From NCBI GenBank assembly GCA_030248215.1, contig JASANG010003984.1, positions 1 to 64,000 on the forward strand: a stretch of 64,000 nucleotides of DNA, written 5' to 3'. Origin of the DNA: Enoplolaimus lenunculus. Lineage: Eukaryota. The notes below the pieces were generated by a model, which saw only the letters and a program-made list of their open reading frames with translations, made no database searches and was not told the DNA's origin. Of this stretch, positions 13,601 to 61,834 are shown in pieces; position 1 is the first letter of the stretch; each line of letters opens with the position of its first letter. Made by a program: the position numbers and the translations under genes.

Positions 13601-15427
13601 AATAGTATGTATTCAAGCCCGGAACTGTTTGTATTCGTGATAACATAAGGACCCTGATATATGTTTACGGACCCGCTATTCACTGGCGGATCGAATTGGT
13701 TGATGCCTACGCCTAATCCCACAATACGGACACCAAACGTGAAATTCTGTTCAAATTTAGTACTAAAATTGCGTTCAGCTACTCGCTGGCTTCGCTTGCG
13801 AGTTTTTTTTCTTTTTCAATATTTAGTGTACGGTTCCATCGTCGAAAAATTTTGGATCCGTCAACTGTCATTGTTAGCCCTAAACGCTGTGTATGATTCC
13901 GGCTTTCAAGTCACATGATATGCGCTGGAATTGACTGTCAAAACAAGCAGCCAACGGATTTCAAATGCGAGCTTATTTCACTTCTATTTTTAGCTGAACA
14001 AGTGATTTTATATTCGTTTTTTTGCTGCATGGTTACTTAGCTATACAGCGAACAATATGTATTAATTTTATTCAGTTTGTTTGCCAATTGTACCATAATT
14101 GAACCACGGGATATTGATGATATATACCCTTCGAAATTTATATTTGAATAAACGACCCATAGTTAAACTCTAATTTAGTATTGACGGATTCTAAACGTTT
14201 TTTTTTTGAGCTACGCTGGTTCTCAGATTACAAGTTCCACGTATACCCTAACCGAGGTGAACTTGTCTGCTTATATCGTTGTTGTTGTGCTAGAACTGTG
14301 TAACCGAAAGATGGTCGGTACAGTACGCCATGGTCTCGAACATTCTGGCACGGCATATTTTTGTTTTGGTTCAGAAAATGGCCAGGTGCCAGCGAACAAC
14401 CAGCGTATGACTAGCGATTATTATTCGTCGTTAGAGTGGGTTATTTTTAGCTTTTAAAAATATTGAGTTTAGCGAGTATTTTCAACGATGTACAGTGAGA
14501 TATTTACGACACATCAGGCGTTTGTTATTGTCATCGTTGTTCGTTTAATAATTTATTTTTCAAATCGTTTGGGTTTTTTTGGTTTGTTTAGCTTGGATGC
14601 TCGTTGGACTATTGCGACTGTGTCCTTGTGTGTGTGTTTTTTTACTTGTGATTTTAATTTGTTATCATCGAGTTAGATTAAAAGTTTGGTATGTCACTGA
14701 CACGTTGTATTGTGATGAAGGCCCATGTATAGGACAGGGCCGGATCGTTTTCTGGAGGGGCTATAATAGAGTCAGTTTAAGCTTTAGACTATTTTTTGTT
14801 GCTTAGGCTTAGGCTTAGGAATAGGAATAGGCTTATACTACTGTTCCGGCCCTGTTCTATACATAGGTCGTGATGAATATGGCGTGAAATTTTGAAATTA
14901 AGTTAATATAATTTTTTTAATTTTTAGGAATGGGTGCTGTACGCTGTTAGGTGTCCCCATATGTTGTCCATTCACCAAACCGTTGACCAATGCACGTCAT
15001 ATACAAGGTTGTAGTCTCGTGATTTCAGTTAACTTTATGTAACTAAATTTTTTAAACCTTTAGGTTCCGGAAGGTGATTTTGAAGCTTGTCAAAAGTAAA
15101 TTTTCTATTCGCTCTCCCGAAATTTCTGAAGGAGATATATTTCCTGTACCGTTCTATTTGTATTCGCTCGTGGTTATAGAGAGAAGTTAATAGCGCCTCT
15201 AAGCAAACTTATAGATTATTACCATTTCTAAATGCAATTTTTCTGCTGCGGTACTGTTTGATGTCATAACCACTGTTCAGATTAAGTCATTTTTGACAGC
15301 TTTCTATGACATATTTTAAAATTTTTTGACGTGAATACAAAACCTATTTTGCCTGGTTTGCAAGCGGGTCGATCGAGTACGACCCCCAGCGGCGGCCGTG
15401 GTCCCCCCCACCGTACTATTAATTTCA

Positions 15428-15752
15428 GGCCCATAGCCAGCTCACCTTGCTAGGGATGCTAGAAGTGTTTCAGGAGTTGCATACAAGAGGTTTCGTTGAC
15501 TTTACAAGCAAGGTTGAAAAAATTTCTAGGGGGGGAAGTTTTCCAGGGGGGCAAAAGTTTTCCAGGGGGGGCAAAAGTTTTCCAGGGGGGCAAAAGTTTT
15601 CCAGGGGGGCAAAAGTTTTCCAGGGGGGCAAAAGTTTTCCAGGGGGGGGGCAAAAGTTTTCCAGGGGGGGGGGGGGCAAAAGTTTTCCAGGGGGCAAAAG
15701 TTTTCCAGGGGGGCTAAGTCTGAGCTCCCCTGCCTACCTTTGGCTACGGGCC
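15428..15752. mobile_element. GGCCCGTAGCCA-ended MITE with internal ~19-20 bp tandem expansion (GGCAAAAGTTTTCCAGGGG, ~15529-15712); unexpanded copies at 7948-8118, ~15993-16148, 16523-16660, 17450-17610, 17970-18113
   Basis: TIRs GGCCC(A/G)TAGCCA / TGGCTACGGGCC and shared core gttgacttacaagcaaggttgaaaa. Confidence 0.8.
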
Positions 15753-24859: not shown

Positions 24860-24914
24860 TTATTATTATTATTAGTATTATTATTACTAGTATTATTATT
24901 AGTATTATTATTAG

Positions 24915-25003
<89 letters not shown>

Positions 25004-30488: not shown

Positions 30489-30566
30489 TATATACGTACA
30501 TATAAATATATACGTACATATAAATATATACGTACATATAAATATATACGTACATATAAATATATA
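30489..30566. repeat. 18-bp tandem repeat, ~4 copies
   Basis: (TATATACGTACATATAAA)n. Confidence 0.9.
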
Positions 30567-32126: not shown

Positions 32127-33166
32127 GTTACAACAACTGCAAAAAAAGTGATAATTTGTTTCATCGAATAATTTAAATTTAAAAGTATAATAGCATACAT
32201 AGGTCGACTGGTCATAAATATTCGTAACTTTAACTCGTATATATTTCAACTTTAATAAGCACAATCAGTGCTATGATTCAAGTATGACGAAGTTATTATG
32301 CTTTTAAGCTCGCTGACAATGACTCGACCACAACTTGGGACTGTAAACCCTCCTACTGTATCGAATATCGGTTGAAAGTCGCTTCGAAGAAAATGCGGCC
32401 CATGTAACGATCAGGGGCGACCGCTTTTCTATGGGACTGCAATAGCGTAAGGTTAAGCTTTAAACTAATTTATTGCTGAAGCTTAGGCTGAGGTATAAGC
32501 TCATTCTCACTTGTCACATTTAGGTTTAAGAATATGCTTATACTACTGTTACGGCCGTGTTGGTTACATTGGCCGAAAATCCACAAAAGTGTGAAACCGT
32601 ACACAGTCTAAGATCTATTAGCACGCAGATGTGATTTTGTTTTGTAGTTGCCGTCATTAAGCCTAAAACAGCTTTGACTGTATGAAAAAAGAATTGGATT
32701 CGCTAAATCGTAATAGTATTGACGTGATTAATTAGTTGATCGGGCTTAACACCAGAAGTTACTAATACATAATTAATAGCTATAACATCTATTATGCTAA
32801 AAAAATTCAATATTACAAACATCTTCGGTGTTCGGCTTAGCACCAGTCATTTGAGACCCATTAATATACTCAAGGGAACACAGGGAACGCTTTGGGATTT
32901 GGCTGCGACAGGTGCTATTGTGACTGGCACCAAGTCAACCAAAGCCCAAGACTGGTTTAACGTAAACGTGGGTTTACTCAAACCAACTGTATGCCAGTTT
33001 GAGTCGAGTCTAGTATATGAGTGTGTTTCCTGTGTTTCCTTGAGTGTGAATGCGTTTGAAACCATTTTTTGTTAATATTTGAAAATTAAACAACGTTCAA
33101 ACGTGGAATTCAACTTGGATTCATTATTAATAAAGCAACGACAGTTTAATTGACACATAATCTCGA

Positions 33167-33358
33167 GTGCACGATGTTCAAGGTTAACCCGTAGATCCGA
33201 ACTTGTGTTGAGCAATTTGTGTTAAAATATTGCTAAAATGCAGTTTGCCACGTTGTTGTTTGCAAATGTGCAATTAATTGCACCTTTTGTAGGCAGCAAA
33301 TGTTACTGCATATAATAGTTAACGCAAGTCTGGCTACGGGTATATCTCATCGGTGCAT
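33167..33358 (+). ncRNA. mir-100: miR-100 precursor with ~115-nt loop; mature 5p 33186-33207, star arm ~33323-33344
   Basis: AACCCGTAGATCCGAACTTGTG is identical to canonical miR-100. It pairs with CGCAAGTCTGGCTACGGGT. Lower stem GTGCACGATG/CATCGGTGCAT. Confidence 0.88.
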
Positions 33359-34699
33359 TACTTCTTATTCTGGACGGGTTTGTTCCGCATCCGGAGATGG
33401 GGTTTGTGACAACGACGTGGTGTTCGGCGTGTCAGGCGGGTGTGATTGAAGAAAGTAAAAATTACAGATGATTTTATGAAATAAATTCGTTGTTTAAATG
33501 TGCCATTAAGGTCGTGATTCATGTGTAGATAATATTAAAGTAAAATGTCATTTAGAAAACATAGCAGTACTGTGTTGGAAAAGCATTCTATTCGATGCAA
33601 TATAGTGTTCCTACTACAGCATTCAGATCTTGCAAACCTTATTCGAATAGGATGGGGCCTTGACATACGTTTAGGATATGGCTTACACAAGTCTTGGTCA
33701 AAAACCTAAGCCTTTGCGTAAGTGTTAACCTTAAATGTGGTAGCATTGTACATAGCTAAGCACAGTGTTTAAAGCATTAAAAGCGTGTGAAAAATCATTG
33801 ACACAGGCCTAAAAACGTTGTTTTGTCTATGTTGGTATCACGACAATTCGTATCGAGTCGTCTATGATGGTTTCACGACAATTCGTCGTACGACCACTCG
33901 TCGCCGAACAACTTGTAATTCGAATTTCATCGACTCAACAATTCGTCATCCATCATTATGCTTAGGCTCAGGATCACGCTTAGGGATATGCTTAGATTTA
34001 TTTATTGGCTTTTTAGAACTTTGTTGGGCGACAATCCGGCGACGAATTGTCCGTAGATTAGTCAGTGTTTTAGGTAGCATTGAATATAAGCCGTTGCCTG
34101 AGTATGAAATTAAGTGTAAAAACATACTTAAATTGTGGCCAGTGTAAAGAACAGGGGCGGAACAGCAGTATAAGCTTATTCCTAAGCCTAAGCGTAAGCG
34201 TAAACCTAAGCGTAAGAATGTGTTTTATTTCTAAACCTAAGCCTAAGCCAAGCAAAAAATAGTCTAAAGCTTAAGCTTACACTATTGCAGTCACACAGAA
34301 AAACGTTCCGCCTCTGATCTGTACATGGACCTAAATTGTTTATGAAAGTTTCCGTTGAATGTGACTGGTATTGCTATTGCACACGCAATTTGCAGCATAA
34401 ACTAGTGACAGTTAAATGCAAACTGCAGTTGTTTGCAGTGCACCACCACGAGTATACTAATCATTTTCTTCAGTACTGTTTAAAAGCTTTACACCGATAA
34501 AATTTGGTACTGTTGCTTAGTCCCCCCACACTATAAATATGAGGGGGTATACTGTTTCACTAACAACTACAGCAGAACCGGCAGTTTTTGAATCGATTTT
34601 GTGTAAATTTTTTAAGTCCGAACTGTATATAATGTATAGATTATACTCAGTTTGGAAAATGTGATTTGAAAACCTTTAGTTTATGTGGTCAATGTTACT

Positions 34700-37544: not shown

Positions 37545-40500
37545 ATGACCGACAGCGATTTGTTTGAGCAACAAAAGGCTCTTAAACGGGGTCTACTCAA
37601 TCGGTTGTTAGATGCAGTGAAACAGGTTTGTTATTAATTTATCTTAGGTTGCAGTATAGATTAGTTTTGTGTAATAAGTATCCATTCAGTTAGAGTAGTT
37701 GTGGAATTTCGTGTTAAATGAGCAATTACAAATTTGAACTGTTTTTTATATCGCTCCAGTGTTTTGTATCCACTGAAGTTTACTGGAAATGAACGATCAC
37801 TTATTCAATTACTCGTATTAGGCGTCAGATGTCCACGGACAGCGAGCAATAGATTTCATGCTACCCATTGGCACATTATTGTTTAACCTTATTGCTAAAA
37901 GTCACAACCTTTGCGATAAATTTGTTTGGAAATTTTTTATAAATACGTCAGAAGGAAGCAAGGTTCTTACAGGCTGTTGAATATTTTTAAATTTTCATAC
38001 TAGATGTGAAATTTGTTTTTTATATTTATATATAAATCCGAATTTATTTAATTTCAGTGTCAGTCAAGATTTGGAGGCAAACGGGAATTAGCTACTGATT
38101 GCTATACGCAGTGAGTTTATTACATACACACAGCTCAAGTTAGATTAACATTCAGTAATGATATGTAGCATATATATACCTGGAATATGCACAGTTTTAT
38201 CGGCGGTCCTTTGATTTTGGAGCAAAATCAGGGGAACGGGATTATTGCTAAAATTTGAAATGTTCGCGCTCAGCTGGACCTGCTGATTTCACAAGTATAC
38301 GGATGATCAATAATGACACCCACTTTTTGAGTATTAAACTTGGTAGGCGTCAGGGTCAGGGCCGGAGCAAACACCCCATATTCCCCATTTGCAGGGGGTT
38401 CACCAGGGATGGGTGGTATCGGTTACAAACCGAGACCGGCCAAGAAATATATCGGTCTGAGTCAATTGTTGGTCATCACCGAAAATAAATTTTCAAAATA
38501 AACTATTTCTAATGTTTTTTTGTAAGCGTGTTTTTATAGTTGTTTGTATTTTCATAGCTTTGCTCTGTTTTTCAAAATATGTGCTCGTAATTATTGCGTA
38601 ACTATAAAATGTTATAATTTCACAGAAAAATTTTATTCATCAGCGACAACTTACTCAACAATACAGTTATATACATTTGCTGAATCCTCGACTTCTGGTC
38701 TCGGTTCCAAACCAGCGAGACTGGAAAAAGCGAGACCGAAAGTGAGAACGAGACAGAGACCGAGACCTGCAAAATACCGATACTTGCCAAGACCGAGAAC
38801 GAGACCGAGCGAGATCGAGATTCGGCCTCCAATCCATACGGATTGAAACAAAACCCTACGAATTTATGAATTACGTCTGGCTTCTCGATCGCTTCGCTCG
38901 AGAGTTTTTGACTCTGTTCTACCTTTCCGTGATTTTAAATAGCTTTGGACACTACATAGGCGTTACAAGAACCCTCAGGTTGCTAATTGCCAACAAGTTT
39001 TCTCGCTCGCTACACTCGCTGGGTTACAACTTAAGTTAATATAACTCTCATGAAACGAAATTGTCAAGAACCGTAATAAAGATAAAGAAAGTTTTGAGTG
39101 AGACGTGTCGTGTGCTGTCTTCTTTGGTTGGAGCATATGAAGATTGTATAAAGTTTTACGTAAAATATCAGTTGTTTAGCTACTTTAAAAGAAAACGCCA
39201 AAAAAAGTTTCGCTCTGCGCGCGAAATTTGATTCATTTTAAAGGTGGTTTCACTTTCTAGATCCATCATTTTGCAACTTTTGTGTGTAATTGTTTTTAAA
39301 GGGTGTCCTCACGGCTATCAAACACGTGCGTGAGCTCAGAAAATTTTAGATGGCGCATGGATAAATTCGGCATCCCCCTCTGTACTGCGGGCCTCCGCTT
39401 TGGAGTTTGGGGGCCCATTCTGTATGCTCCGGCACTAATAGGCGTTTTTGACCACCACTTTTCAAACACAAAAAACTCGACTGGTTTATTAGTACCCAAA
39501 ACATCTGACAAGCTCATTATCCGATATCAACCTGTGTATCACAGCTCACGTAGGAACTTATGCATGCCTGTTGGCTTCGAATAATCATATGGAAATTCAA
39601 ATGTGTACCTGATTAATTTCTATTAAGGTGTAGTCAAAATTTTATAGGGTTTCCTGTCTTCTTGCTCAACTGGAAGCAGTGTTTTACCATGGTTTGAAGC
39701 ATAATCAAACTGTACTTAATACGCTCAAGTAAGTAAATATGGGGATAATGTTGCGTTGAGCTGAATGGACATGTATATACGTTATACGTTTTGGAAAGCT
39801 GTATTTTCGACAATTAGCAAAAGTTTTTGAGCTGTTTGCAGGAGCGGATTTATTGTAACTGTGTGCGGATACCAAAATTTTTGCCGATGCCATTGTAATT
39901 TTAATATATCTTGCTTAGAGAACCGAAGACTTAACACTATGAACGCGAAAACGCACTGATATACGCCATCAAGTTAAATGGATAGCATTGTTACTCACTG
40001 CTAAGAGCAAAAACTATCGGCAAAAAATCAATATTTTGCAGTAAACGTTACGATGTCGATTAATTGGCACATCCCTAATTGTAATAATGGAAGCATTGTT
40101 TAACATTGAGTGTTTCAGACAAGTCACTGAAAAACTTACAAATATTAGTTTGGATCACTTGGAACTGGAAACAGGTTAGTAGCGATTTCATTAGGTTAAA
40201 ACTGCAACATAATTACGGCAGCCTTAATGTTAAGTGAAAGTAGGTAGCAGAGGTTTTTAAAGTTACGCTCTAAGAATGTTGAACTTTTTTTGTTGGTTCC
40301 AAGCAAAGCTAAACTGAGACTTGCAAACCGAGGCTGCAGCTAAAAGTCTCGGTCTCGGTTATTTTTGAGCGGTAACCGAGAGCGGTTCTACCTACATGCA
40401 GCAATGAACTACATTGGTATGTTGGGTTTTGAGTAATTTTGTTCAATTTTATATTTCCTTCTGGTTATCGTTTTTAACTAAAGTTAGATTTATTTTTGAT

Positions 40501-43500
40501 CAGTCTAAGAAGTGATTTATTAGGCATTAAAACAGTTTTTAAAATTAGTTGTTTGTTTGATTTTGGACGTTTGGTTTTGTCGTGCAAACGTCCTGAGACG
40601 AAAAACCAAGAGTTATTGAGACCGTGGCTTTCATCACTTCATTGGCGCTAAGTTTAGTTTTAAAACCATGATGCATTATGTGCTTCTGTTTGTAAATCTG
40701 ATGTCTTCCTGATAAAAAAGGGCTAGGGGCATGATATAAAACGTGAATAACGTGATCATGATATGTATACATTAACAATTCCAATGTTGGGTGTTTGCGG
40801 GAAGTTGTGTATTTTTAGTATTATGGCATTTTGTTCGTTATCATTTGAGCGACCTTGAACGCTCGCGCTACAGCAATCTCAAACACATTACAACTGACTC
40901 AGGACGGGGGCGAGCATGGATACGTGCTGCGCTTAACGAGAAAACACTGTCGAGATACGTCGAATCAATGTTGGGCGATACCCATACGCTAGAGTAAGAA
41001 CCAGCGTTTTATTTTTATTTTATACCAAGGCAGGCATAATTGGCGACTGTGACTTACGATAAATTTTCAAGCACCAATTAAAAAAAATTCGACAAGAGAA
41101 ATGTTATGCTTACTGTCAAATTCAAATTCTTTGGAAGGGATATAAAGGCAAGTTGAAAAGGATCCAGTCATATGCTACGCTTGCGAAATTAGGTGCTGAA
41201 GAATGTTTGTCAGTACTTAAGTCTACGATGAGTTAATCAACCAATTTATAATTTTACAGGATTTATTATGAAAGCTGGGCATTTTTACGTGATGAAGAAT
41301 TAAGCGCCACTTTACCACAACTGACGGCAGGTAAGTAATTTCGGCATTGAAATTTAGTGTATAAAGTTTTTTTGCTAAACGTAGATATTTTTGGATCTGC
41401 AGAGGTGCCAAAAATTAGTGGAAGCACAACAATTTGCCACTCTTGTTTTATTTATACAATACTAGTTTTTTAGGAACAGTGATATAAAACGAGCTTATTG
41501 TTTAGGCCTTCAATCGATTTTGTTTGCAATTGCAATTGATAACGCAGAGCTGAATACTGCGAAGTGTGTCATTGAACAGACTTCTGAAATGTTAATTGAA
41601 GCCAAACGAGCACCGGCACCCATTATAAATGTTCAAAGCGGACGCGGAGGTATGTATATTGTTAAGAGACCTGCCGTTGACAAAAGGTTGTACTGACTAA
41701 TGGCTGATAAGAGAATTCACCTGTGTATTTTAGATTTGGTGTTTTAATTTACCAAAATTGTTGGCAATATAAACGTCATTCTTCGAAATTTTTCTTCTAG
41801 CTTTCCGGTAATGAATGGAGGGTGGTGGAATTTCACCAGTGCTCAGCCATGAGCACCATTGCCTCCATTTCGTCCCGCAATACATATTTTTGACAAATGA
41901 GATGTCAGCCTTTTGGCTGTAATAATACTATTTATAGTTGTGACTGGCATCACCGGAAAAAATTTGTCGCGGTGGTAGTTTTATCACTTAATAATGCTTA
42001 CATTTAAAATTTTAGCACGACGATACAATCACAGAAAGAAGAAATCAACACTTGTTAACGTGGTTTCATTTGACAATGCGAGGAGGTATACTATTGCTAA
42101 ATGCTAGTTTAACCGAAATTTTTGACTTACTAGAGTTTGGGGATTTCAAAATTTATGCAAATTTCAAATGCTAAAAGATACAGTTGTATAGTAATTAAGT
42201 ATTGAATGGTTTTACTTAAGCGATATTGTGTTATGTATAACCAGTCGTAGTGGGACTACATGTATTGAGGGAAGCTCGAACACACGTAAGCAGTTAAGCT
42301 AATATGCAAATTAGTTATTAGCTAACTATTCATTTATTGGTTTTAGAGGTTTGTAAACAATTTATTGAGATGCCTCGCACTCAAAAACCCTTCATTAACT
42401 CTAATAATTTGAGAAAGAATTTTAAAAGCCATTATGTAGGCTTATCAATTTAGCAAATATTTGCAAATTAGCTATTAGCTAACTATTCGATAATCGGTTT
42501 TGAAGCTTTGTAGACTATTTATTTAGATTCCTCGCGCCCAAAAAACCATTATTGCTGAAATTAGATTGCTTGTAACCCTAATAATTAGTGATATATTGCA
42601 AAAAAGCCTAATTTAGGCTCATCAATTGTGTTATATGCATATTATCTGTTAGCTAACTACTCAGTTATCGGTTTCAGACGTTTGTAAACAGTTTATTCTG
42701 ATTCCTCGCACCTAACAACATTCAGTACACCATAATAATTAGTGAAATAATTTAAAAAGTCCTAGTTATGTCTTGTCAATTAAGCAAATATGCAAATTAG
42801 CTATTAGCTAACTATTCGATACTCGATTTTGAAGGTTTGTAGACTATTTATTCAGATTCCTAAAACCCAAAAAGCCATTAGTGCGGAAATTAGATTGCTT
42901 GTAACCCTAATAATTAGTGAAATATTGCAAAAATGCCTAATTTAAGCTCATCAATTATGTTCTATGCAAATTATCTATTAGCTAACTACTCAATTATCGG
43001 TTTTAGACGTTTGTAAATAATTTATTATGATTCCTCGCACCCCAAAAACCTTCAGTACATCATAATAATTATCGAAATATTTATTCAAATTTCTCGCACC
43101 TAAAAACCCGTTAGTGCTGAAATTATATTGCTTTTAACCTTAACAATTAGTGAAATAATGTAGAAAGTCCTAATTTAGGCTTAATTAATTTTGCAAATTA
43201 GCCTGTAGCTAATAAACGGCTTAAAATTTTACAACCCAAATGCGAGGTTAACACCCCATGATAATTGGCTTTCAAACAAAAAAGTTTATCAAAACCGAGT
43301 CAGCCGTTCCTGAGAATTTTTTCGGACGGACGGACGGACATCCACTTTTCGACCCCAGAGTACAAAACATAGAACATTGAGTGAAACTTCGAGTTTTGCT
43401 CGGAGTTTCGCTTCGCTCAATAAGGCTATAAATAATAACTTTAAAAGGATATAACGCACTACAAAGTGAAAATCTTATAAAGACAACAAGGCGCATCTTT

Positions 43501-46500
43501 TTGGAGATAGTTTTACATTTATATAGGGGCATGTTTTCATATTTTATAACAAATTTTAGGTTCTCGGAAAGCGATGGTCATATGAAGGTTATATCTTCGG
43601 GTGGCAAGAAACAAACGTACAAATCAAGTACAGCTTCTAGTGGTCAAGCAATCAATTCAGTGCTTCAAGCGTGGAATCAAGGAGCGGCCAACGATTCAAA
43701 TGGTTCAAAAACGAGTAATAGCCGGGCGGTGCCGTCACATATCAACCGAGTAGACTCGTATTCTTCAGCACCTGCAGAAGCTAATCCTGGTAGCAAATCG
43801 GTACAGCAAACGCCGTTGATGTCGTTATCGTCTGTTGATGGTAATATGATAGTGTAGATTGGGTTAAGGGGGAGGGGTAAAGATGGCTGGTTGGGGCAAG
43901 GGGAGTTTTTGAGGTGGCTGGATAAAATGGAGCAGCCGTAGCTGTGAAAAGGTTTATTGAACTGATGGTTAGCTACGTTTGAAGTTTGAAAGTCTTTCTT
44001 ATTACAGTGCAAGCGCTATCTTAGTGCAATACGGCTAGCGGAAAAGTTACCTGGGACATGGAGCTGTCTCGAAGAATTTATTTACTTACGTAGAGCTGTT
44101 AAATGTTCAAAGGGCTGTTGTGATAATGATTAGCTGCATTGGTTGTTTGCAAAAATGTCTAATGCAGTAAAAGCGACACAAGTGCAGTGTTTTTTCTGCA
44201 GGAAAAAGTTCGTGGGAGAAAATATAAAATGCACTGGTATTTGCTGTACCCTCCTATTAAGCGTTAAAGATTATTTTTACAGATGAAAACGTTAGATTTT
44301 GATGTATGCGTTTGCGATTCTATTGAAACCCAGGCCTATTTGGTACTAGGTCTTTTAACTTTTGAGCCATAGTCAAATTTTGTAAAATTTTGCGTGCTGT
44401 ATATGGCAGATGTTTGTCAACACTCTACCCGTATGAGAAATTCATTAATAATAAATGCAGGACAGTAGGTGGTTTGTTTGAAAATAGGTGCTATAGACTT
44501 CTGAAAATACGGTCTCTGATATCAAAATTTTTTCAGACGTACTGGCATTTGTGGATACCGTTGGCGAAGTTGAAGAAGAAGACGCCCGGTCGGTATTTTG
44601 TGATACTTCTACTCCCTCGCATAGCAGTTGTCGGTCCCCGTCCGAAGCAAGCGCTGCGTTGCCAGGCGGTTTACATTCCGGAGCGATTGTTGATCAGTTG
44701 TCTGTGACACCATCCGGCGATAGTTCTCGCAGCGGACAGATTTCGCCACAAATTCAATCCAGCGGAGAATATCAGGCGGTGAAAAGTGAAAAGTAAATAG
44801 TATTTTGGAAGTAAATGCATTTTGAATGTTTATTTTGACTTCGTTATTGTCGAGTAATTATTTTTCAGTTTGAAAGAATAATAGTCTTGGAAAAGCGTTG
44901 ATTTGTTTTTTATTTATGTGTTTCAACAAATTATTGGAAATTAAGCAAGCAATGTGGCTTAATTTCGTTTTTGATTACTTCTTGATCGTTTTTCGCTTTT
45001 TTAGTTTGTCAAAATCGCAACATACGAATTTAGATTCGGGTTTGTTTCTTAACGGTGAAACATTTACACCGATTCTGTCTTACAGTGACGGGATTGGCGA
45101 CAGCGCAAGTGCCTTACACGTAATTGGTCGACCGGAACATTCCGAGCACGGTAAAATATCTTTGTATGTCCTAAAGGCAAGAGGTAGCTAGTTTAAAATT
45201 GGTGTATTCAGGCTCTCGGATTAGTTTAAGTATGAATAGCTTTTCAGCGCTGAATTGTTTTTGGGGATTGTGGATTTATTTTAAATATTTTCAGGCGTCG
45301 TTGAAGCAAATGGTTTTAGTTCAAGTAATTCCGGAGTAGGTATGTGAGAACAGGACAAAGACTAGTGTGTTGATAAACGGTTGAAATCTTTTAAACTGGC
45401 GCATTGTAAAGTGGTATAGTGGTAAGATTGTGTGAACATTCAGTTTATTTAGTCCAAGTTATAGTAGTTTAATTAAACCTCATCTGACGCTATGCTGCGC
45501 CAATAATAATAATATGGGGAGTTAAATTTTGATTCTCAGCCTGATTTCGCGCAGTGGTTATTTTTTGGCAAAAGCGAAACTGTATTTATAGTGAGACGAA
45601 GCTTTCATCAAACAAATTCTCTGAAAAATTATACATCGTAATATGGTAGTATAGTGTGTAGCATTGCTAATTTGCATTATTTTTTGTTTTAGATATTCCA
45701 ACGCTGAATGATTTGCTGCAAACTGATAACACATTACGTACAGATTGTGTTGGTCAACCAAATGGTGGAGACTCTTATGCTCAAAGGTGAGTTAATGTTT
45801 TAATATCAACATCACACATTTGGTCGCAATTCTGCAGTGAGTTAGTTGACTACACAATATGGGGCTGCAAGATTGTCGCAAATTATTCGACCTTTGAATT
45901 TAAGTGTTTTAAATGCCGTCATGAGTTTACTTTTTGGCAGTCTCATGTTGTACCTTTTTAAGGCACTTGTGTGCATTCAACCGATAAAAGTTCAATTACG
46001 CATGATGACTGGATTAATGATGTATGCTGAGGGTTTGGCATATGTTTAGCCTAAACTGAGCTTAAATTTATGAAAATAATAAACTGAAATGTGGGAAACT
46101 TTAAGGGAAATCAAACAAGTTGCCCGTTGGCCAGTCATTTCGACGATTTCATATGAAAAATTTTTCGCATTATTCGTGTTGCTTGAATAAATTATTACTG
46201 TTTTCAGTGGAAGTGATTACTTGAGCGGCGCAGAGGATTGCGCAGGTGACAACTGTTCAAATCCGGACAGCAATTCGGCTGAATTTGTGGCAAGTTTACG
46301 GCAACAGCTAGCGGCGGTCAAACAACAAAGCACTGTGACAGTTTCAAAGCTTGAAGCTCAGTTGGACTCGGCTCTGCAGTAAGAATTGTTTTGGTGGTGG
46401 TCATGGATTAAAAACAAGGGAGAAGGGGTCGGTCTCTTTGAGCAAGTGACGTCTGTGGAAGTTGAAAAAAGAAATTGAATTTGCGTTGAGTAGAGTTTTT

Positions 46501-49500
46501 GATCGAATGGAAAAAATAGCAAAAATCGTTTATATCGTAGGTGTTAGAATTGAATTTTTTTCAAATAAAGATCAGTTTGAAAATGCAAATTTAACAAAAT
46601 TGAATTGTTGTACAGCTCACGTATATTAAGTTTATTTATGGTAGAAGTGTTTGATATGAATATGATATTTTAGTTGTTTCACGCTAGCAATATTTCGAAA
46701 TTATTCGGTTTCTAACGGTTATAGACAGAAATCACTCTTCTTTACTGTGTACCTTATATTTTCAGAGAAAACGAAGTATTGAAAGGCCAAATCAAAAGTT
46801 ATATATCAGCAGTACAATTGCTTAAATCTCGTGGTGCTCAGAACTTTTCAGGTTGGTTGACTATAATTTACATCGGATCGGGGTTGAAAAACAGCGTAGC
46901 AAGCGTTTTTGGTAGGTAATTAATTTAATGAAATTGCTAGAAAAGATTTCAGGTGTTTTGTAGGGATATAGGCAAGCAAAAAGTAAAATATGGATGCAAC
47001 TCGGTATATTTTAGCAATCAAGCGGAATTCAGCAGCCAAGACCAAAAGCAGATCTCCTGGTGTGTTAACATTTGTCAGTTATAAAAAAATTGAAGTACAT
47101 GCGTAGATTTTAGCAGGTGCCCATGTTATTGATGTGTAATAGTCGAGTAACTGAAGCGTAACGCACTAAATTGCAATATTAACAGTTTTTACAGTTCAAA
47201 ACTAAATATTTAAAATATGTGTTTAAGAATCACCGGAAGTTAATGAACTGGTATCCTGTTCGACATCATTCGAAAATCCAGATGATCCAGCGAGCGTATA
47301 CGAACAGAAATTAATTCAGGTGTGTGGTTCCGTTATTTATAATTAAGCATTACACAGAGTTGGAAATTTATTTTTTATGAACAGCTGTATACGGTATTGA
47401 ATTAAGTTATGCACCGTTTATGACATTTTTTGCCCCCACGACAAATACTGTAAGGTAAAATTAGTCGCTAGCAATTTTGAAAATCACAACTGGTCAACCG
47501 TACCCGATAGCAAAACGTTAAGACGCACAATTTGGCTGCTAATTGGAAATGTTGATAATTTTTTGATTATCCGGGAAAGAACTTAGCATGATAACTGGAT
47601 TTTAATAGTGAGCTTATACGTGTTTTTCGGCCTTCTAATATGCTTGTATATTAATGTGGTTTTGTGTTTTCTGCTCGTTTAGGTCGCTCAAATGCACGGT
47701 GAACTGATGGAATTCAATGAACGCCTACAGTTGGATCTGAACAAACGATCTCGTCTTGTGTCCAAATTACGAAACGAACTTATTGAGTTACGTGGTCCGG
47801 TAAGAAATTTTTATATTTTATTGTCATAACTGTTTGATAGTTTATTATTTTGATATAGCAGTAATAAATGCCTTTTTGGTTCATAGCCTCGATTGCTTGT
47901 GGTACCTGGTACAAAGCGCTTGTTGAAATAAAACAGCTTTAATTGAATTTTGAGAAAATTATTTTAACAAGGCGCAGATTTATCTTTGTAATGTTTCTGG
48001 AAGCTTTCTGATAAATCAGTGCGAAAACCGTTTTCAAGTTTGTTTCAATTAGACTGTTTTCCCGGAACCGTAATTTGGAATTTTTATGTTGCATACGAAA
48101 ATTAAAATGCGATGATAGGTTTCGAGATTTTGGTTTGGAAAACATTGTTTCAGGTGGCCGAAGATTTCATTATCGATATTGATGAACCTTCATTAAGGTG
48201 AGAGTAGCGTTTCAATATTTTCTTTTCTTGCTACTTTCTAGATGAAGCATAGTGTAAATTTTATAGCTAGCCACGACACCAATTGTTGCAATGGCTAGTC
48301 AATGTAGTAAGGACGCATGATGGTTTATCTGCTGGCAAATCAAAACGATTCTCACTTACTCCGAAATATTTTTGTTGATTGTGCGATGCCTATTGAACTT
48401 TTTTCTGGGTTTACTAAAGTTTATGCCGGTTGTCTGAGTGTCTGTTACATCTGTGAGCAGTCTAGGCCTTTCTTCTGTTTTGGTCTCTTTTATAGTTCCA
48501 ATTAGGACTTATGGACTCTATACACTAACGGACTCTAATTGCAGATATAGACTCCAACTGATTGAGACTTAGAATGGGGTCTTCCTGCTGTTATCACCGA
48601 CCCTTTTGTTCGGGTTACTACAGTATCCATTTAGGTGGGTATTTTTAGCCAATCAAGAGCTGTAGCTGTCGTCCATACAATTTGTGTATTGGCTTGATGT
48701 TTGCTGATATGGCTAAATTAATGCAGCGGCTACGATTACCATATGATTGCCTAATCTAAAAGTAGCTACTTATCGTTGTCTTATTGCTAAGCACGTTGTG
48801 AGGTATGAAATATTATGTTTTTATGTAGCAGATTTTTTATTAGTTTCAGTGGATCTACTAATAATGATCGTCCCAGTATCAACATTTGGGTACCTACTGT
48901 GTTTTTGACTGGAAAAGGTGCTGATGTTCACCATGTTTATCAGGTGAGGCTAACATTTGCAACGTATCTAAGATTTATCTTATCTATTTTGTGCGGAGTT
49001 TGGCCGAAAGATGTGCTACATTTGACGATGTTTTAGGTTTTGCCTTTTTGAGTTCTAACTTTGAGAAGTAGTGACTTTAAGTTTTGAGATTCAATTCACG
49101 GTATCAATATCAGGTTACCTATAATATTAATAAAACAGAAATTCCTCAGCAGTGTTTATGACAAGCATCTAAATTGTTTCAAGAGGTAGATTAAGTTCTG
49201 ACCCGTTTAATATTATTTCTAATACTGAAAAAAGATTTTTGGTTAAGTTTTGTAGAAGTTAGTGTCACGATTGAGATTTTATTATTTTAGATTTATATTC
49301 GGTTACGTGACACTGAATGGAATGTTTATCGACGTTATTCTGATGTTCATCGATTGCACGTGGAACTGAAGAAACGTGATCGGTCAACTGCATCTTTTCG
49401 AATGCCACCAAAGAAAAATATTGGTCATAAGGTAAAAACAGTTAATGTGCTAAAACAAAAATAATTACAATGTTTCGAATGTTTAAAAGTTTAAACTAAA

Positions 49501-50074
49501 AACTATTTATGAGTTGTGCTGATCTTTGTTTGTTTGTGTATTTGCTTTTGTTGGTTGGTTGTTTGCTCATTTTTGTTGGTTTGTAGTTGTTCATAACATG
49601 AACTGCCAATATTGTGACATTCGCAACACTAACGGATAAACAAAATTGATCGGCACATGTATAAAAAAACATTGCTTGTGAGTGTCAAAAACTAGTCTAC
49701 TGTGTACTTAACAACAGTGTCCACTGAGTAATGTCATTAAAAGTTAAAGAATTTTCTGGGTTGAAGCGGCATAAATTCGAGCGCTATTACCACGGGCTTA
49801 CCTGCAGCGTGGCAATACAATTTTTGCCTAATTTGTAAAGAATTTCTTTTGAGAAAGTATGTGAAACGGGGTAGGTATTACCTCTTTGATACCATTTGAT
49901 TTGTGTTCATTTTGTCTTCTGTGTGTTTCAGGATAAAAATTTTGTTGAAATCCGCCGCAAACAACTGGAACAATACCTTCGGGTCGTTATCAATTATATA
50001 GTAAAGAATTTTCCAGAATTCGCTTCAGTTGGTGTGAGAAAAGATACTGTTATTGATGTCATTCCGTTTTTAAG
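37545..50074 (+). CDS. SNX29: Sorting nexin-29 (RUN domain, coiled coil, PX domain). Exons 37545-37625, 38058-38110, 39648-39728, 40119-40174, 40819-40993, 41260-41330, 41506-41649, 42016-42085, 43560-43840, 44537-44792, 45005-45150, 45295-45339, 45693-45786, 46208-46378, 46766-46851, 47228-47319, 47683-47799, 48154-48197, 48844/48850-48943, 49291-49431, 49932-50074
   Basis: In-phase GT-AG exons give [102 protein letters not shown], all characteristic of SNX29. The low-complexity middle exons rest on splice signals and phase only. Confidence 0.93.
42263..43422. mobile_element. Non-autonomous element in SNX29 intron 8 with 13-bp inverted ends, internal ~155/175-bp tandem units and a (CGGA)n tract
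   Basis: TATTGAGGGAAGC...GCTTCGCTCAATA ends; repeated TGCAAATTAGCTATTAGCTAACTA motif; CGGACGGACGGACGGACA. Confidence 0.65.
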
Positions 50075-52523
50075 GTAAGCCAGCTTCCAGCAGTTTTGAA
50101 GGAAACCCCTTTAACCCCTTGTGACATAGAGCATAATATGACCAACTCAGTGTCATTTTTGTGTATGTACGTTAATGTGAAATATGCAATAGAACGTACA
50201 GTGTTTAACATATTCATGTAGATACTGTAGGTATACGCAGTACAAAATCTTCTGAAGACGTGATAGAGCAGCCTCGGTCTCGCATGTAGTATTGAAGACG
50301 TTACAAAACATTAACGTAATCAGTATCGGTCTGGGTATTAAATTAGTGAAATGATAATTATAGTTAGAAAGTACATTTGGGTCGATTCAGCCAAATCTTG
50401 AACTGCGTACTAATGTGCAACGTATTTACGTGCCCGATCTTATTATCAAGTTGAGACGTTTTGTGTTTTAGCGATCAACCCATTGCGCCTGGAAAAAAGA
50501 ATCAACATATGCTCAAGCCATGAGATTATAACGGTATAAAATGAACGTGATAATACTACAAGTATAGTGATTGTTTTGTGATATGAACACAATGATAATG
50601 TGCAACAGAGAATTAGGCGATAGTTTTGGCCAAGTAGTCCCGATTGGAAGAACCGTTTTGTTTGCATTGGCGAACTGGTGAGTTCAACCAGGAAACATCT
50701 TGCTGATTTCTGGTATTGGGTGTTTGGCCAGTGTTACTGTAAGGGGCGTAACAGTAGATTAAGCGTCTTCCTCTAAGCCTAATTCTAAAAGCCTAAGCGT
50801 TGCAAAAATGAGTTCCTAAGCCTAAGCGTTGCAAAAATGAAGCAAAAAATGTAATCTAGAGTCTAAACCTAAACTCTTTTATAGACCCACCAGATTCCTT
50901 GAAGGCCCTTAAAGTAACGGGCTGGATGTTTGATAACGCAAAAGCGGTCGTGTGTAGTTATTGCTATTTTGTAGAATGTAAATTAATTCTACAGTAGCGT
51001 AATGGGATGGAATATAGTTAGCTGTTTGAAGAAAACAAAATCGTACCTGCTTATCTGGGTTGGTTAGCCTTCGATTAAGGATCCGGTATGTAACAGTGCC
51101 GGATTCAGGCGAACGCCTACGTGGTCTCTGAGCGTAAGACTTGCGCTTAGACGTAAGTTTGATTTTGTTCGGGACTTTTTTGTGTACATGGCTCGCATGA
51201 GTGGTTGCTGTCGAACTGTTTATCTTGAATCTATTCTGTATTTAAGTTATACACATGCGTTGTATTTAATGATCTGCATTTTGTCCACTGTAAATTATTG
51301 TTTTTTGCTGCAATATTTTTTGAATTTTGATACAAGGCACGTAGTCTTATAGCGTAAATAATTAACATGTTGGCCAATGTTACTTTAAGGGGCGTAACTG
51401 CAGATTAAGCGTATTCCTAAGCCTAAGCAAAAAATATAATCTAAAATCTAAACCTACTCTTATAGACCCACCAGGAACCTGGACGCCCCTTAAAGTAGCA
51501 TGGGCCAGCATGTTCGTTCTGTTTTAAGAATTTGTTAAATGAGGGGGTGGTAAAGTGCTTCTGACGTAATCTAGGGAACTGTTGGTCGCAAGCGTATGCA
51601 GCAATTTGCATATGCATTCGTGTTACTAGCTTGAAATTGGACTACGTTGAATGGTTTGTTTTGTATTTTTCTTTGATTGTTACTTTTGTTTAATGGTCTG
51701 AGAAATGAATGTGTATTAGCCAAATGTCGTATGGTTACTGTATATATCGACTGCACAATTACCACCCCCATTATATAATCTTTGCCAGTCGTGCGTTAAG
51801 GTTTTTATGATGCAGGGAAACGGAATATACAGTGCCGGCGGAAGTGCCCCCCCCTCAAAACTTCCCAATTGAGGGCCCGACCTTATAGGACCACACTCTT
51901 TGCAAGTTAAAACTTTTCGCAGACCACGAAGTTTACGTAACTATAAAACTTTTGATCGGGGCTACTCGGACCTGTTTGGGGGCGACTATCCTAAGGCCGG
52001 GCTTTTATGTGCTAAAATTATTTCACCTAACATGGATTCGCCTTCTATTGTAAGTGGAATAAATTTTGCAGACTCCCGGTAGGGGGAAGATTTTACCGTT
52101 GTCAAGATTTTTGTTGCTTACGACGAGAAAAATCAGGTGAAAAATTGAATACATGTACTGATCGGACGGCCAATGTTACTTTAAGGGGCGTAACAGTAGA
52201 TTAAACGTATTCCTATGGCCTAAGCCTAAGGAAAAATATAATCCAGAACCTAAACCTACTCTTTTATAAAACAATCAGAAACCTGGACGCTTCTTTGTGT
52301 AACATGGGCCCCACAGTGGTATGGTTTATTTTAAGCAGGCTAAATGTAGGTCAGTTGTCGATCACAACAACCTGACTAGAGAGGCGTTGAGTTTCGAAAT
52401 TGTATTTCAACTTTTATACACTGATGCTTATCAAAAAAGCTTTGCTCAGTGCCTATATCCCTGCTTGGCAGGAGCTGGGTTCCAGTTCACTCTTGGATTA
52501 GCTATTTATTCTTCGTATTTCAG

Positions 52524-53532: not shown

Positions 53533-53951
53533 AAATTTGATGATGTATCAAACCAGATAATTTTGAAATCCGACGCCCGACGGACAATTTTAGTACCGAA
53601 AATGCTGGAACGTTCGGCAAAACCGAACGAATCGAACAGTTTGCTTTCGCTGGCAAAACTGCAGAAACTTTTGCCCTACTATAATGACCCGAAAGACGGG
53701 GGACTGATATTTATTTAGCTTCTCCAGATGGTACCCCCCCTTGTTATTCGGTTACAGACTGTAATTTTTAACCCACGCTCCGCTGCCCTTCGTTACTGAT
53801 ATATATCCGGTACTGCAATTATCCGTTGAATTAAACGTTTATTTGTCTTGTGTCAATAGCTTGAGCGAGATAATACAAGGTTATAGGGTTATTTGACATT
53901 TATGGACTCCAATTAGGGTTTAGGAACTATCCGCTTACGGACTCTTTTTAG

Positions 53952-54396: not shown

Positions 54397-54713
54397 GCTT
54401 ATTAGGGATACGGACTCCAATTGATTTGAACTCAAAATGGGGACCCACCTCTTATTACCCCTCCCCCTCTTATCCGGGTCAATACAGTACCCAAACTGAA
54501 GGGCGAATGATAATTTTTCAAAAATAAATCGGGGTAAAAATCACACCGTTTTATATACTGCAATTTCATGTTTCGCTTTGGCTAGTGCTTACACGATGGC
54601 GCCTGCTTCACTCACGTTCATGTTCGAAATTAAAGATAGGTCCAATGTATAGAACAAAGTGGTACAATAGAAAAGCACATTCCTAAGTCTTATCATAAGG
54701 ATAAGCTTGTACC

Positions 54714-54888
54714 GTCCCATGTATAGAACAGGGCCGGATCGTTTTTAGGAGGGCTATAATAGAGTTAGTTTACGCTTATTAGACTAAATATTTTTGCTTA
54801 CGCTTAGGAATAGGCTCATCCTTACGCTTACGCTTAGGCGTAGGAATATGCTTATACTACTGTTCCGGCCCTGTTCTATATATGGGCC
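54714..54888. mobile_element. Sister GGCC/(CTTAGG)n MITE; copies at 14720-14869, ~12522-12680, 32397-32574, 34137-34331
   Basis: TIR (GG)CCCATGTATAGAACAGGG and shared internal GCTTAGGCTTAGG arrays. Confidence 0.75.
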
Positions 54889-56499
54889 GCTTGTACCTAA
54901 GCCTTAACTAAGCAAAAATAGTCAAAAGCGTAAGCATACTCTTACTAATCTGAATTTTATGTAACCTTTTGCTTTTATTTAACCAGCATTAACACTAAAC
55001 AGTAGAAATACCGTAAGCATAGTGTACAATTGAAAGCAACACATTCGGCAACATACAATTGCAATCTAATATTTCTAATCTGTGCATTAGCACCAAAACT
55101 TGATATTGTAATATAAATTTTTCGTTCAACTTAAGCAAACTTGTTTATCAGTAATTTCTGTGTTACTTCTTGTAGACAGCGGCTCACACCCATATCGAGA
55201 TCTCAGTTCCCCATAGAAAAATTCTGTCTACCCACAGCATTTCAAGTTTGAAAGGTTTTTGAAATCAATTTATGTCCCTCCTAAAGTTTAACGGCCAATG
55301 TTACTTTTAGGGGCGTAACAGTAGATTAAGCGTATTCCTAAACCTAAACTTAAGCGTAAGCGTTTCAAAAATGTGTTCCTAAGCCTGTGTATGCCTAAGC
55401 AAAAAATGTTATCTAGAATCTAAACATACTCTTTAGAATCTAAACGTACTCTTTAGAATCTAAACGTACTCTTTTACAGAACCACCAAAACCTGGACGCC
55501 CCTTTACAGTAACATGGGCCAAAAGCACTGTAATTTATAGTCGCGCATCAATCCATATGAATGCAAAAGGCTTTAGTGCAATTTGAATAAACAATCACCG
55601 CTATGCATAAAGAAATATCATGAATATCATTCAATCATACGCTTATCTCAGTCAATATTTCACTGAACAAAATGCCAAAATCATGGAAACGGTTGCACTA
55701 ATGACTCCGCGCCTGGGTTGAACTGAGATGCCTGTTTTCAATGCAACCAATGCCGCGTCCCACTATCGAAATCCACATCCGTATACGTATCTCCTCGATA
55801 AACACCGAGTTCAACCACTATTTGCCCCTGAACAAGTAACCAAATATCTCGTATCACCTGAAAATGCAATCTTCTCATGGCCACCAACAACTGAAACAGG
55901 TACTTTCTCCATGAAAAGTGTGCTTTCTTTAAACCAGAGCAACCGTAACCAGAAGCTGAAAATATATATATTTTATCACAATTTATCAGACAAACATCCA
56001 TAGCCTAAAAACAGAATTCTCATCCGCAAGTACCAAGGCGATCCAAAATCTACAAAATACCTTAACCCCATTCTGGCACGCCATTATTTCAATGGTCCAT
56101 ACTATTTTTATGCGTGCCCCGTTTCTCGTCAGGACCGCAATAGAATAGGCTTAAATTTTGACTTATTTTTTTACGCTTAAGCTTAGTATTAGCTTTAGAC
56201 GTATAACCTACATCGCATCCTAAACAATGAGTACCTTTTTCAAACCTGTGACCAGCATAACCTGATTTCTAAAACTAAAATTCACTTACGCATTAGCATC
56301 ATAACCACAACCTGATACCGTGTGGTCAGTCGCCTAATATATAACCGTTCAAACCAACTTCGTTATCTAAAAATATTACTAAAATTAACCTTGAAATACT
56401 TATAAAAATTGAAACTTTTATCAATTAAGACTTTTTAAATTAATAATTTGGGTTTTTTTTCAAAATTAAATATGTAAGCTATTGTTGACGACGCCCAAA

Positions 56500-56708
56500 T
56501 GTCACTGCCTGCGATCCTAAACATGTGGTTTATTCGAAGTGTTTTTGCCTCGATCGGAGCAACACACCCACATTTCGGGACTCGAATGGACGCACCATTT
56601 TTTATCATTCAACACCATTATTTACCATACAACACCATTATTCAAAGCATTGCGTAAACACGTCGGTTCGCTTTGATTACCACAAGTTTAGGTCTCAGGG
56701 ACATGACA
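56500..56708 (-). ncRNA. mir-125: miR-125 precursor with ~151-nt loop; mature 5p 56701-56680, star arm ~56528-56504
   Basis: Minus strand TCCCTGAGACCTAAACTTGTGG is 19/22 to miR-125b with the seed intact. It pairs with CCACATGTTTAGGATCGCAGGCA. Basal TGTCA/TGACA. Confidence 0.85.
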
Positions 56709-59813: not shown

Positions 59814-59901
59814 AATGAAAGCTATATACGAACAAACTGGTTCAAAATATTAACCTAAAATTTCAAACACGACCAAGCCAAACACTATTCATATTACCTC
59901 A
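59814..59901 (-). ncRNA. let-7-like precursor candidate (5p TGAGGTAATATGAATAGTGTTT, ~40-nt loop)
   Basis: let-7 6-mer seed GAGGTA. Star arm GTTTGTTCGTATATAGCTTTCA gives a 10-bp core and a let-7*-like GCTTTC end. Lies upstream of miR-125 on the same strand. Confidence 0.55.
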
Positions 59902-61834
59902 AACCAGGAAGTGATCTAGAATATATCAGGCAAAGAATTTAATTATATGAAACCAATACATGAACAACATACCAACGTTGAGTAGTTGCAAATCGGCACA
60001 TATTATACTCTATATTATATATTAAAAATTAAATCTAACATACATAATAACAACAGGCCGTAATCGTAGAAAGTTAACAAACCTGAAACCATAATTTATT
60101 TTGCTTCCAACAACTTTCAATCCCGTCAGGGACGTTAGAACATCAAAAACAAGATTGGTTTAAAAAACTATGAATTCAGATTAGCCAATAACTAATACTC
60201 ACATAAGGTCACTCATGAAAAGCTCAAATATACAAAAATTTTCAAAAATCGAACCATTTTTATAGGCAAACGGCAGCTGTTGACGACGGAAACGACAAAT
60301 TTTAATTCAATCACGTAATTTCACTGTTAACCATTCCCGCTCCAGGGACGTTTTAAATCGTATTCGTCCACAGGTCCGCAGCCAGCTCAACGTGCATGAA
60401 TGCCAGAGTGCCAACAGGAATTAAATTTTGCCGGAACAGGAACATGCACCGGAAGTGTACCTTTTTGCCAGAAACAGGAACTGGAGTTTAAAATAAGTTT
60501 CACACACCGATTTAGTGTTTTACTTTTTAGTAACCACGTCAAAAAACGCGCCTTAGGCGAGATTTTGGCTATTTTTCGTGTTCATACCTCTTACAAAATC
60601 ACTCGCCAAATATTTGAATTTAACATCATATCAACTGAACGGAACGAGATGAAACACATGAAGTTGAAATATTTACATGATATGGCATATCACCGTAAAA
60701 ATTTCCGTTCCTTGCGTAAATAAGTAACTTTTTCGCACGAATTCCGGTTGAATTCCGGTTGGAACATGAGGAATTTCTGTGGAAGAACATTGGCGGGCGC
60801 TAAAACACATTTTCAAAAAGCCATAGGAAATCGCAAACCCACACAAGCTGAACTAAAACAGTTCCAGGCGGAAGCGAAATCCTGTCAGTCAAGGTGACCG
60901 GACGCCTTCGAGTTTTTCTTCTGGCTACGGACGTGTCCGCCTCGCCTGAATCCCGATCCTATCTTTGAAAACCTTCGCAAGCATCACACACGCCGTCGCA
61001 GAAACAAGTCATCATGGCGTTAAGCTTTAATAAATCATTATATCTCTCCACTGTTTGTCGGCGTTAATTAGTTATTGGTACGCAAGCTTACACGTACATA
61101 AGCATACTCAGGGTGAGAATGTCGTAAATCAAACCATGAAAATTAATCTCAAATGTTCTAAGTAGTGGCTTCTTGGCGGTAAAGCCTGACGTTTATAATT
61201 TATTATATATGTGTCGTAGGCCAATCTGCTATCCAGGACAATTACCTATTGGCCTGAATAGCGGATTGCCCCTACGACAATATATACTATAATGTTTTTC
61301 GGTTGATTTTGTTAAAAATTCTACACAAAGCACGCAAATTGTACCTATACAACATGAATATCAAATGTAAGTCAGGCTTTAAGTGTGTATTTTTTAAATT
61401 TGGATTCTTTACGGTTGTGCTATACTTTACTGGGCTGGAAGCCGCGACGCGTTGCTAACAAAAATATAGGCATAATCATGGTGCAACTTAAATTGCGGTT
61501 CCGTTTCCTGCAATATTTAACCTTCCGGTTCCGGTTCCCGTAAAGTTTTACCGGAATTAAAAAACCCGGTTTTAAATTTTGGTCGGTGGAAATTAATACA
61601 TTTTACTAAAAAATAACGATAAAAATGAAGTAGATTTCATTCGTTTAGTGTATAAACATTGGCAATCGTCGAAAATAAACCGCTGAATGTACATTGCGCT
61701 TCCGCGGATTTATGAACATCTAAAATACAGCAGATAAAGTGAATACCTATCTCCAACTAAGTGTTATTTCACCAATAATATTGTATAAAAATTTATATGA
61801 ATATTTCGGCGGCATTTATTTTTCATTTTCCGGC

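Follow-up and report, generated by a model that had tools for sequence, protein, structure and literature searches.

Predicted giant-loop precursors of miR-100 and miR-125 in a 64-kb window of animal DNA

What limits the length of a microRNA precursor (pre-miRNA)? MirGeneDB 3.0 describes the cause of this constraint as unsettled and counts nematodes among the groups subject to it. An independent case is offered by a 64,000-nucleotide (nt) stretch of the Enoplolaimus lenunculus contig JASANG010003984.1 (assembly GCA_030248215.1), hereafter the window, in which miR-100 and miR-125, two of the oldest animal microRNAs, each have a predicted insert of more than 100 nt between their arms. An earlier reading of the letters, the original prediction, had placed both among some 27 giant-loop microRNAs, a cluster spread over 14-60 kb and taken to derive from miR-100/let-7/miR-125. 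The sequence supports the conclusion that the animal has miR-100 and miR-125 genes with predicted giant-loop precursors, which would be processed at that length; most other long-loop duplexes in 14200-60210 can be put down to chance folding or to the termini of small DNA transposons.

Two conserved microRNAs with distant star arms

By MirGeneDB practice, partly set out in PMC11701709, the arms of a canonical microRNA are 20-27 nt long, form no fewer than 16 pairs and end in 2-nt 3' overhangs. At both loci the predicted arms fall in this size range, 16 pairs lie within nt 1-20, and the predicted 3' overhangs measure 2 nt. The components of mir-100 are as follows (z, stability relative to shuffled sequence).

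33186..33207, + strand: miR-100 (Mir-10-P2) mature 5p arm, exact ancestral sequence
33208..33324, + strand: inter-arm region, 117 nt, branched in the predicted fold
33325..33344, + strand: predicted miR-100 star, 20 nt, with 2-nt 3' overhangs and 16 pairs in nt 1-20 of the pairing table
33166..33364, + strand: whole pri-mir-100 fold with basal stem (z -6.99; 0/200 shuffles as stable)
33361-33364, + strand: CNNC motif at +17, from the motif scan

The mature sequence, exact as the original prediction had claimed, occurs once in the window and is identical at 22/22 positions to Daphnia Dpu-Mir-10-P2 5p, and its ACCCGUA seed on the 5p arm assigns it to Mir-10-P2. The predicted star starts with CAAG and includes CTACGGGT, as do the curated Mir-10-P2 stars compared (Tetranychus and Daphnia), and 33325-33344 is the best partner of the mature arm within the 700 nt scanned. 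The resulting pre-mir-100 has a predicted length of 159 nt. Stability is strand-specific, the minimum free energy of the region being -77.8 on + versus -54.9 on the opposite strand (23 kcal/mol weaker), and the insert folded alone is also more stable than shuffled sequence (z -3.5; 0/200 shuffles equally stable). Inside this insert lies a 28-pair hairpin of pre-miRNA size (33238-33311, +; 4-6-nt loop; z -3.85), which could give a second small-RNA duplex.

The components of mir-125 lie on the other strand.

56680..56701, - strand: miR-125 (Mir-10-P3) mature 5p arm, variant
56527..56679, - strand: inter-arm region, 153 nt, multibranched in the predicted fold
56504..56526, - strand: predicted miR-125 star, 23 nt, from pairing; resembles the star side of a short-loop homologue (contig L004)
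56484..56714, - strand: whole pri-mir-125 fold with basal stem (z -2.97; 0/200 shuffles as stable)
56487-56484, - strand: CNNC motif at +17, from the motif scan

Here the mature arm agrees with that of Gordionus Gsp-Mir-10-P3 at 19/22 positions (compared by eye), the proportion originally stated, and carries the CCCUGAG seed of Mir-10-P3 on the 5p arm. The predicted precursor is 198 nt long, and its insert contains a 20-nt tandem repeat (56593-56642). The first 21 nt of this miR-125 recur exactly in five metagenome contigs of one animal (L001-L005, mutually 96-99.5% identical), where they sit in a normal short-loop hairpin; in the four of five loci that reach far enough, a canonical let-7 precedes it by 815-816 nt. 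In L004, let-7 occupies 680-744 and miR-125, in the same variant as in the window, 1494-1566; within the stretches examined, this canonical cluster is known as let-7 plus miR-125 only. The flanks of the window gene do not align with those of the contigs, and the star sides are alike. The identity of the window miR-125 is thus supported by an identical 21-mer in a canonical, let-7-linked hairpin of another animal.

Both genes retain CNNC at +17, a motif with a single-position background of 3-4%, and 15/22 and 16/22 mature bases pair with the distant star at P>0.9 in contexts of 465-601 nt. The original prediction had put the star arms 115 and ~151 nt away; the distances found for the predicted stars are 117 and 153 nt, in place of the usual ~16 nt. 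The expected 150-200-nt precursors likewise find their counterpart in the predicted lengths given above, their processing being a matter of the model set out below. Both inserts are free of window repeats, save for the short internal tandem repeat. Relics of an old short-loop star inside the inserts were not significant (p 0.49, 0.08, 0.94).

Rfam covariance searches, over the whole window and in focused scans, detected neither gene, bearing out the expectation that standard predictors would miss them; the short-loop mir-125 homologue in L001-L005 is detected. Automated annotation would consequently score miR-100 and miR-125 as lost.

Hairpin X upstream of mir-100

The interval 14200-60210 was rescanned de novo, without use of the earlier candidate list. 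Repeat masking left 37,009 of its 46,011 bases. Duplexes with at least 24 pairs in ~33 nt, a span of at most 300 nt and retention in the minimum-energy fold were collected, those with an inner span of at least 40 nt being counted as long, and 21 block-wise dinucleotide shuffles, yielding 437 long duplexes, served as control. At -35 kcal/mol or below, four long duplexes were found on + versus 0.2 in shuffles (0/21 reaching the real count) and one on - versus 0.0. The four were mir-100, whose energy per base is better than that of all 437 shuffled duplexes, a hairpin at 32859 here termed X, the mirror image of mir-125, and a duplex at 20018 whose fold is at shuffle level (z +0.4); the one on - was mir-125.

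32850..33061, + strand: hairpin X, candidate lineage-specific giant-loop microRNA (z -7.15; 0/200 shuffles as stable)
32866-32887 and 33028-33049, + strand: predicted arms of hairpin X, with a 140-nt branched region between

Hairpin X lies 105 nt upstream of the mir-100 stem. Its own stem consists of 26 contiguous pairs (32865-32890 with 33023-33048), including five G-U pairs and no mismatch, and with a duplex energy of -46.3 it outranks every other non-repeat duplex in the masked interval; no shuffled duplex equals it in energy or in energy per base. Within the predicted register, 20/22 bases pair at P>0.9 and a UG stands at -14; CNNC and a C at -5 are absent.

In all three folds (mir-100, mir-125 and X), a multibranch junction is predicted 1-3 pairs above the duplex, and 56-70% of the insert bases are paired, with z of -3.5 for mir-100, -1.95 for X and -0.17 for mir-125. 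The inserts of 117, 153 and, as predicted for X, 140 nt exceed the threshold for giant hairpins (at least 42 nt) and fall in the extreme class of >100 nt.

X stands a slightly better than even chance of being a microRNA. A serious competitor, a little short of an even chance and concerning X only, is an endogenous small interfering RNA (endo-siRNA) hairpin or a neutral inverted duplication, which the near-perfect stem, without bulge or mismatch, would also fit. The opposite strand of X also folds, at -74.4; no homologue of X was found, and CNNC is missing. No known seed emerged among the MirGeneDB arms tried: 8-mers from the likely arm starts begin no invertebrate arm in the listed rows, and match a few unrelated vertebrate rows. 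Against such an origin, the five positions at which the stem is not fully complementary all form G-U pairs on the mir-100 strand (a chance of 1 in 32 for randomly placed transitions), X is single-copy within the window, its basal stem carries the UG at -14, its branch point sits right above the 22-nt register, and mir-100 is close by.

The predicted 3p arm of X (33028-33049, +) resembles C. elegans lin-4 at ~16/21 positions in a gapped alignment made by eye, on the wrong arm for the lin-4 family.

Comparison with known precursors

In Table S1 of PMC12553114, whose rows descend in loop length, loops of 100 nt or more belong to 31 of 19,725 MirGeneDB genes, counted by eye, with no Mir-10 member among them. 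The 14,689 rows covered run from the longest loops downwards, and five strings of window sequence matched none of the rows covered. The longest rows named Mir-10-P2 and Mir-10-P3 have loops of 59 and 39 nt, and the longest nematode loop is 54 nt among the 346 nematode rows listed. With the curated Mir-10-P2 and -P3 genes, the window genes share mature sequences, 5p position and star motifs, and they still lie within 23 kb of each other. They differ in loop length, in their location on opposite strands with SNX29 between them, and in that no let-7 hairpin was found in the window. Their loops are about twice (miR-100) and four times (miR-125) the longest curated loops of each family.

The closest published parallels, backed by small-RNA and biochemical data, are the giant hairpins of Javad-zada et al. 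2025 (PMC12553114), namely Daphnia let-7, mir-375, mir-278 and mir-750, lepidopteran mir-12 and fly mir-989. Like the two window genes, these have conserved arms >100 nt apart, are branched or unpaired near the dicing site and are missed by covariance models. Largely paired sequence separates the arms there. The window inserts are predicted to be multibranched, and that of mir-125 is shuffle-like. The genome survey of that study was limited to Diptera, Lepidoptera and crustaceans, and the ten families given in its main text as having several >100-nt members exclude Mir-10. On one of its crustacean supplementary figure pages the label 'mir-10' occurs eight times, and its Tables S3 and S5 may list long Mir-10 members.

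In the rotifer Seison nebaliae, hairpins of 75-175 nt, on average 117, are described as a feature of the whole lineage, with mature sequences conserved (Herlyn et al. 2025, PMC12256650). A comparable pattern is suggested in the window by two of two conserved microRNAs; Seison has small-RNA support, whereas the window contributes two conserved loci read from sequence. In the horsehair worm Gordionus, which belongs to the sister phylum of nematodes, the Mir-7, Mir-9 and Mir-153 loops measure 162, 152 and 113 nt (MirGeneDB 3.0), whereas those of Mir-10-P2 and -P3 are 18 and 16 nt, with mature sequences that differ from those of the window, which rules out Gordionus as its source. The Symsagittifera rows covered (30 of 32) have a CACGA-type 3' flank that the window does not show, and Hofstenia is reported to be without the miR-100 seed.

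Giant loops as a phenomenon are therefore already published (PMC12553114, PMC12256650, PMC11701709), and the premise of the original prediction that such loops were unheard of is outdated. What is new is their predicted occurrence in these two families at record length among curated genes, and possibly in a phylum, the nematodes, reported as length-constrained. No report of long precursors for miR-100, miR-125 or nematodes turned up in the literature searched, which was largely outside subscription journals.

Proposed processing and functional status

The window directly provides the sequences, pairing geometry, basal stems, CNNC motifs at +17 and strand-specific stability. On this basis we consider it likely that miR-100 and miR-125 are functional canonical microRNA genes with giant precursors, and that X is probably a young co-transcribed microRNA. 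By analogy with fly mir-989 and Daphnia mir-375, Drosha would measure from the basal junction and crop precursors of 159 and 198 nt; the docking site of Pasha/DGCR8 would be, in place of a terminal loop, the unpaired branch point located 1-3 pairs above the duplex; and Dicer would count ~22 nt from the cropped end, removing the entire insert.

For fly mir-989, whose insert measures 99 nt, Drosha, Pasha and Dicer-1 are all required, together with the extension of the stem and an unpaired stretch adjoining the dicing site; the authors interpret that stretch as an internal Pasha/DGCR8 platform (PMC12553114). Since canonical enzymes suffice in that case, the altered Drosha or Dicer implied by the original prediction is not required. 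Foreign long hairpins are poorly processed in fly and human cells (PMC12553114), so host-specific help is possible. The branched, not straight, extensions of the window genes would make them natural substrates for the internal Pasha/DGCR8-site model.

The inserts probably grew through local tandem and inverted duplication, as suggested by the nested inverted repeat in mir-100 and the 20-nt tandem repeat in mir-125. A rearrangement appears to have broken up the ancestral mir-100/let-7/mir-125 cluster: mir-100 (+) and mir-125 (-) converge, 23,160 nt apart, and the polycistronic arrangement of three genes in order on one strand with let-7 in the center was not found. Because the two genes face each other, one common transcript is impossible; X and mir-100 could share one.

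Several observations weigh against functional giant precursors. Extended structure was found necessary in giant hairpins (PMC12553114), and the mir-125 insert, at shuffle level when folded alone, is at odds with this; 7% of the long shuffled duplexes beat mir-125 in energy per base. The miR-100 star measures just 20 nt, the basal UG at -14 and C at -5 are absent from both genes in the motif scan, and no long-loop orthologue of either was found.

In an alternative account, the two genes would be disabled or poorly processed copies, their loops enlarged by insertion, with functional short-loop copies elsewhere. The unremarkable stability of the mir-125 insert fits this account, as do the broken cluster with no let-7 hairpin found in the window and the poor processing of foreign long hairpins. 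It is nevertheless improbable: the loci keep a perfect miR-100 mature sequence, undamaged seeds, stars of the family type, their basal stems and CNNC; two separate loci are both elongated, although so few curated loops reach 100 nt; and neither insert overlaps a window repeat other than the short internal tandem repeat. Functional genes with giant precursors remain the preferred reading.

Search for further giant-loop hairpins

About 25 further duplexes had been put forward in addition to miR-100 and miR-125. At -27 kcal/mol or below, the rescan counted 17 long duplexes on + versus 13.7+-3.3 in shuffles and 12 on - versus 7.1+-2.9, counts reached in 4/21 and 3/21 shuffles, respectively, so the proposed surplus is within the range of chance. 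At -30 or below, there was a modest excess (8 vs 4.3 on +, reached in 1/21 shuffles; 6 vs 2.6 on -, reached in 2/21). A control against shuffles, suggested at the outset as a check, thus separates the material: mir-100, mir-125 and X beat 200 shuffles each, and the bulk of the long duplexes is shuffle-like. Candidates at 14244, 17316, 24158, 20018, 21635 and 31925 had z between -0.8 and +0.8.

Exact family-seed sites numbered 18 in the window, and four passed a loose precursor test: mir-100 together with its mirror on the antisense strand, mir-125, and one site with a let-7 seed. Together with the placement of the two conserved genes on opposite strands, 23 kb apart, this does not amount to an expanded cluster derived from miR-100/let-7/miR-125. 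At the miR-100-like sites 13238, 28966, 29435, 17316, 24158 and 14244, the precursor is weak or lacking. None of the five let-7 seed sites in the window has a supported precursor; the site that passed, 53181 (exact seed), is shuffle-like (z +0.27), candidate 31925 has z -0.8, and candidate 40240 has a seed mismatch and a repeat-like insert (z -2.3). Rfam microRNA matches at 30490-30627 correspond to an AT microsatellite.

Contrary to the chance reading, the rescan yielded an excess of short-loop hairpins on the - strand (8 vs 2.5 in shuffles, 0/21 reaching the real count). Of the seven that were folded, six had z from -0.5 to -2.1, and 29379-29451 had z -3.4; the latter is strand-specific (-36 vs -18.6 on the other strand) and may be a microRNA of ordinary size, with a weaker second hairpin adjoining it at 29504-29584. 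On +, 29419-29440 and 32838-32860 share TAGCACCAGTC...TGAGACCC with a miR-29-type seed start, and neither folds as a clear precursor. A single-copy inverted repeat at 21185-21345 (z -3.3 to -4.4), equally stable on both strands, is probably a transposon remnant.

Some features would suit the originally proposed cluster of about 27 giant-loop microRNAs: the excess on + in the -35 tier and, modestly, at -30; seven ACCCGTA sites in the window; a T- and G-skew on + over 10-32 kb, which could reflect a long transcript; 77 matches in a masked self-comparison versus 25-36 in shuffles; and the fact that weak young microRNAs are inseparable from chance by folding alone. We nonetheless regard that cluster as very improbable, given the shuffle-range counts at -27, the six shuffle-like candidates, the single unsupported site that passes beside the conserved genes among the 18, the 45 top self-matches, all either remnants of repeats or AT-rich sequence with shuffle-like scores, the assignment of the recurring ends to inverted-repeat elements, and the occupation of 37.5-50 kb, not a gene-free stretch, by SNX29.

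Small inverted-repeat elements

The original prediction had noted recurring 5' ends among its duplex candidates. In an unmasked scan of +, 24 of 77 long duplexes had arms mainly in repeats, most of them being terminal inverted repeats of 120-290-nt elements with common ends; copies of one such end motif number 11 across the window. As the strong duplexes with shared ends are terminal repeats of these elements, the recurring 5' ends most likely derive from them.

51364..51514: small inverted-repeat element with GGCC(A/C)ATGTTACT-type ends and internal TTAGGC-like repeats
52164-52312, 52908-53073, 53363-53536 and 55293-55520: elements similar to 51364..51514
14720..14869: related inverted-repeat element with GGCCCATGTATAG ends; similar at 54709-54896 and 34131-34337
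26032-26228 and 35552-35734: another inverted-repeat family

We take these elements to resemble miniature inverted-repeat transposable elements (MITEs); the likeness lies in their multiple copies and terminal inverted repeats. One repeat family ends in CCCGTAGCC, like the start of miR-100. The family at 8115, 15750, 16525, 18110 and related sites ends in CCCGTAGCCAG, which mimics the miR-100 5' end and shares an 11-nt match with the miR-100 star in reverse complement.

Genomic setting

The window is animal DNA with a G+C content of 37% and no CpG depletion (observed/expected 1.06). Its genes are as follows.

within 1-4.7 kb: GPS2-like exon and MEAF6
4075..4743, + strand: MEAF6, intronless (Pfam NuA4 match; trees)
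37545..50075, + strand: SNX29, a sorting nexin with RUN and PX domains (exon translations, PX domain, sorting nexin-29 homologues); it extends to at least 50075, the 3' end not being mapped

Several features touch on the identity of the host. TTAGGC, the canonical telomere repeat of nematodes, occurs as a dimer eight times in the window, compared with 0-2 for seven related hexamers. All 16 splice acceptors chosen by eye show a T at -5, a base found there in 38% of YAG sites in the background. In MEAF6, WDRY is followed by a PP motif that is present in 12 of 325 homologues, nearly all in a group with Plectus, Gnathostoma, Thelazia and Ditylenchus; its grouping with nematodes has a FastTree support of 0.66 and is unresolved in IQ-TREE, and a joint clade is not rejected (p-AU 0.315). 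Loss of CNNC, reported in Caenorhabditis, counts against a nematode affinity of the window. On balance, a nematode host is somewhat more likely than not. A bolder interpretation, which we hold to be tentative and rather unlikely, is that the host is an early-branching nematode with genome-wide giant precursors, as in Seison, carrying the longest miR-100 and miR-125 precursors yet, and that X is a new family born giant next to mir-100. If true, this would break the reported <80-nt limit of the phylum.

MEAF6 carries a long Ser/Gly insert; the one close relative found is a Logan protein (P0001, support 97/92), and its exact protein sequence is present in the ESM Atlas. Searches with MEAF6 and SNX29 yielded no close relative from a named species. 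By self-comparison, 13,270 bases of the window are repeated sequence. An SNX29 intron holds a 329-nt tandem repeat (42302-43083), and satellite arrays lie in 62541-63729 (26 nt, 45.7 copies) and 61835-62252 (38 nt, 11 copies).

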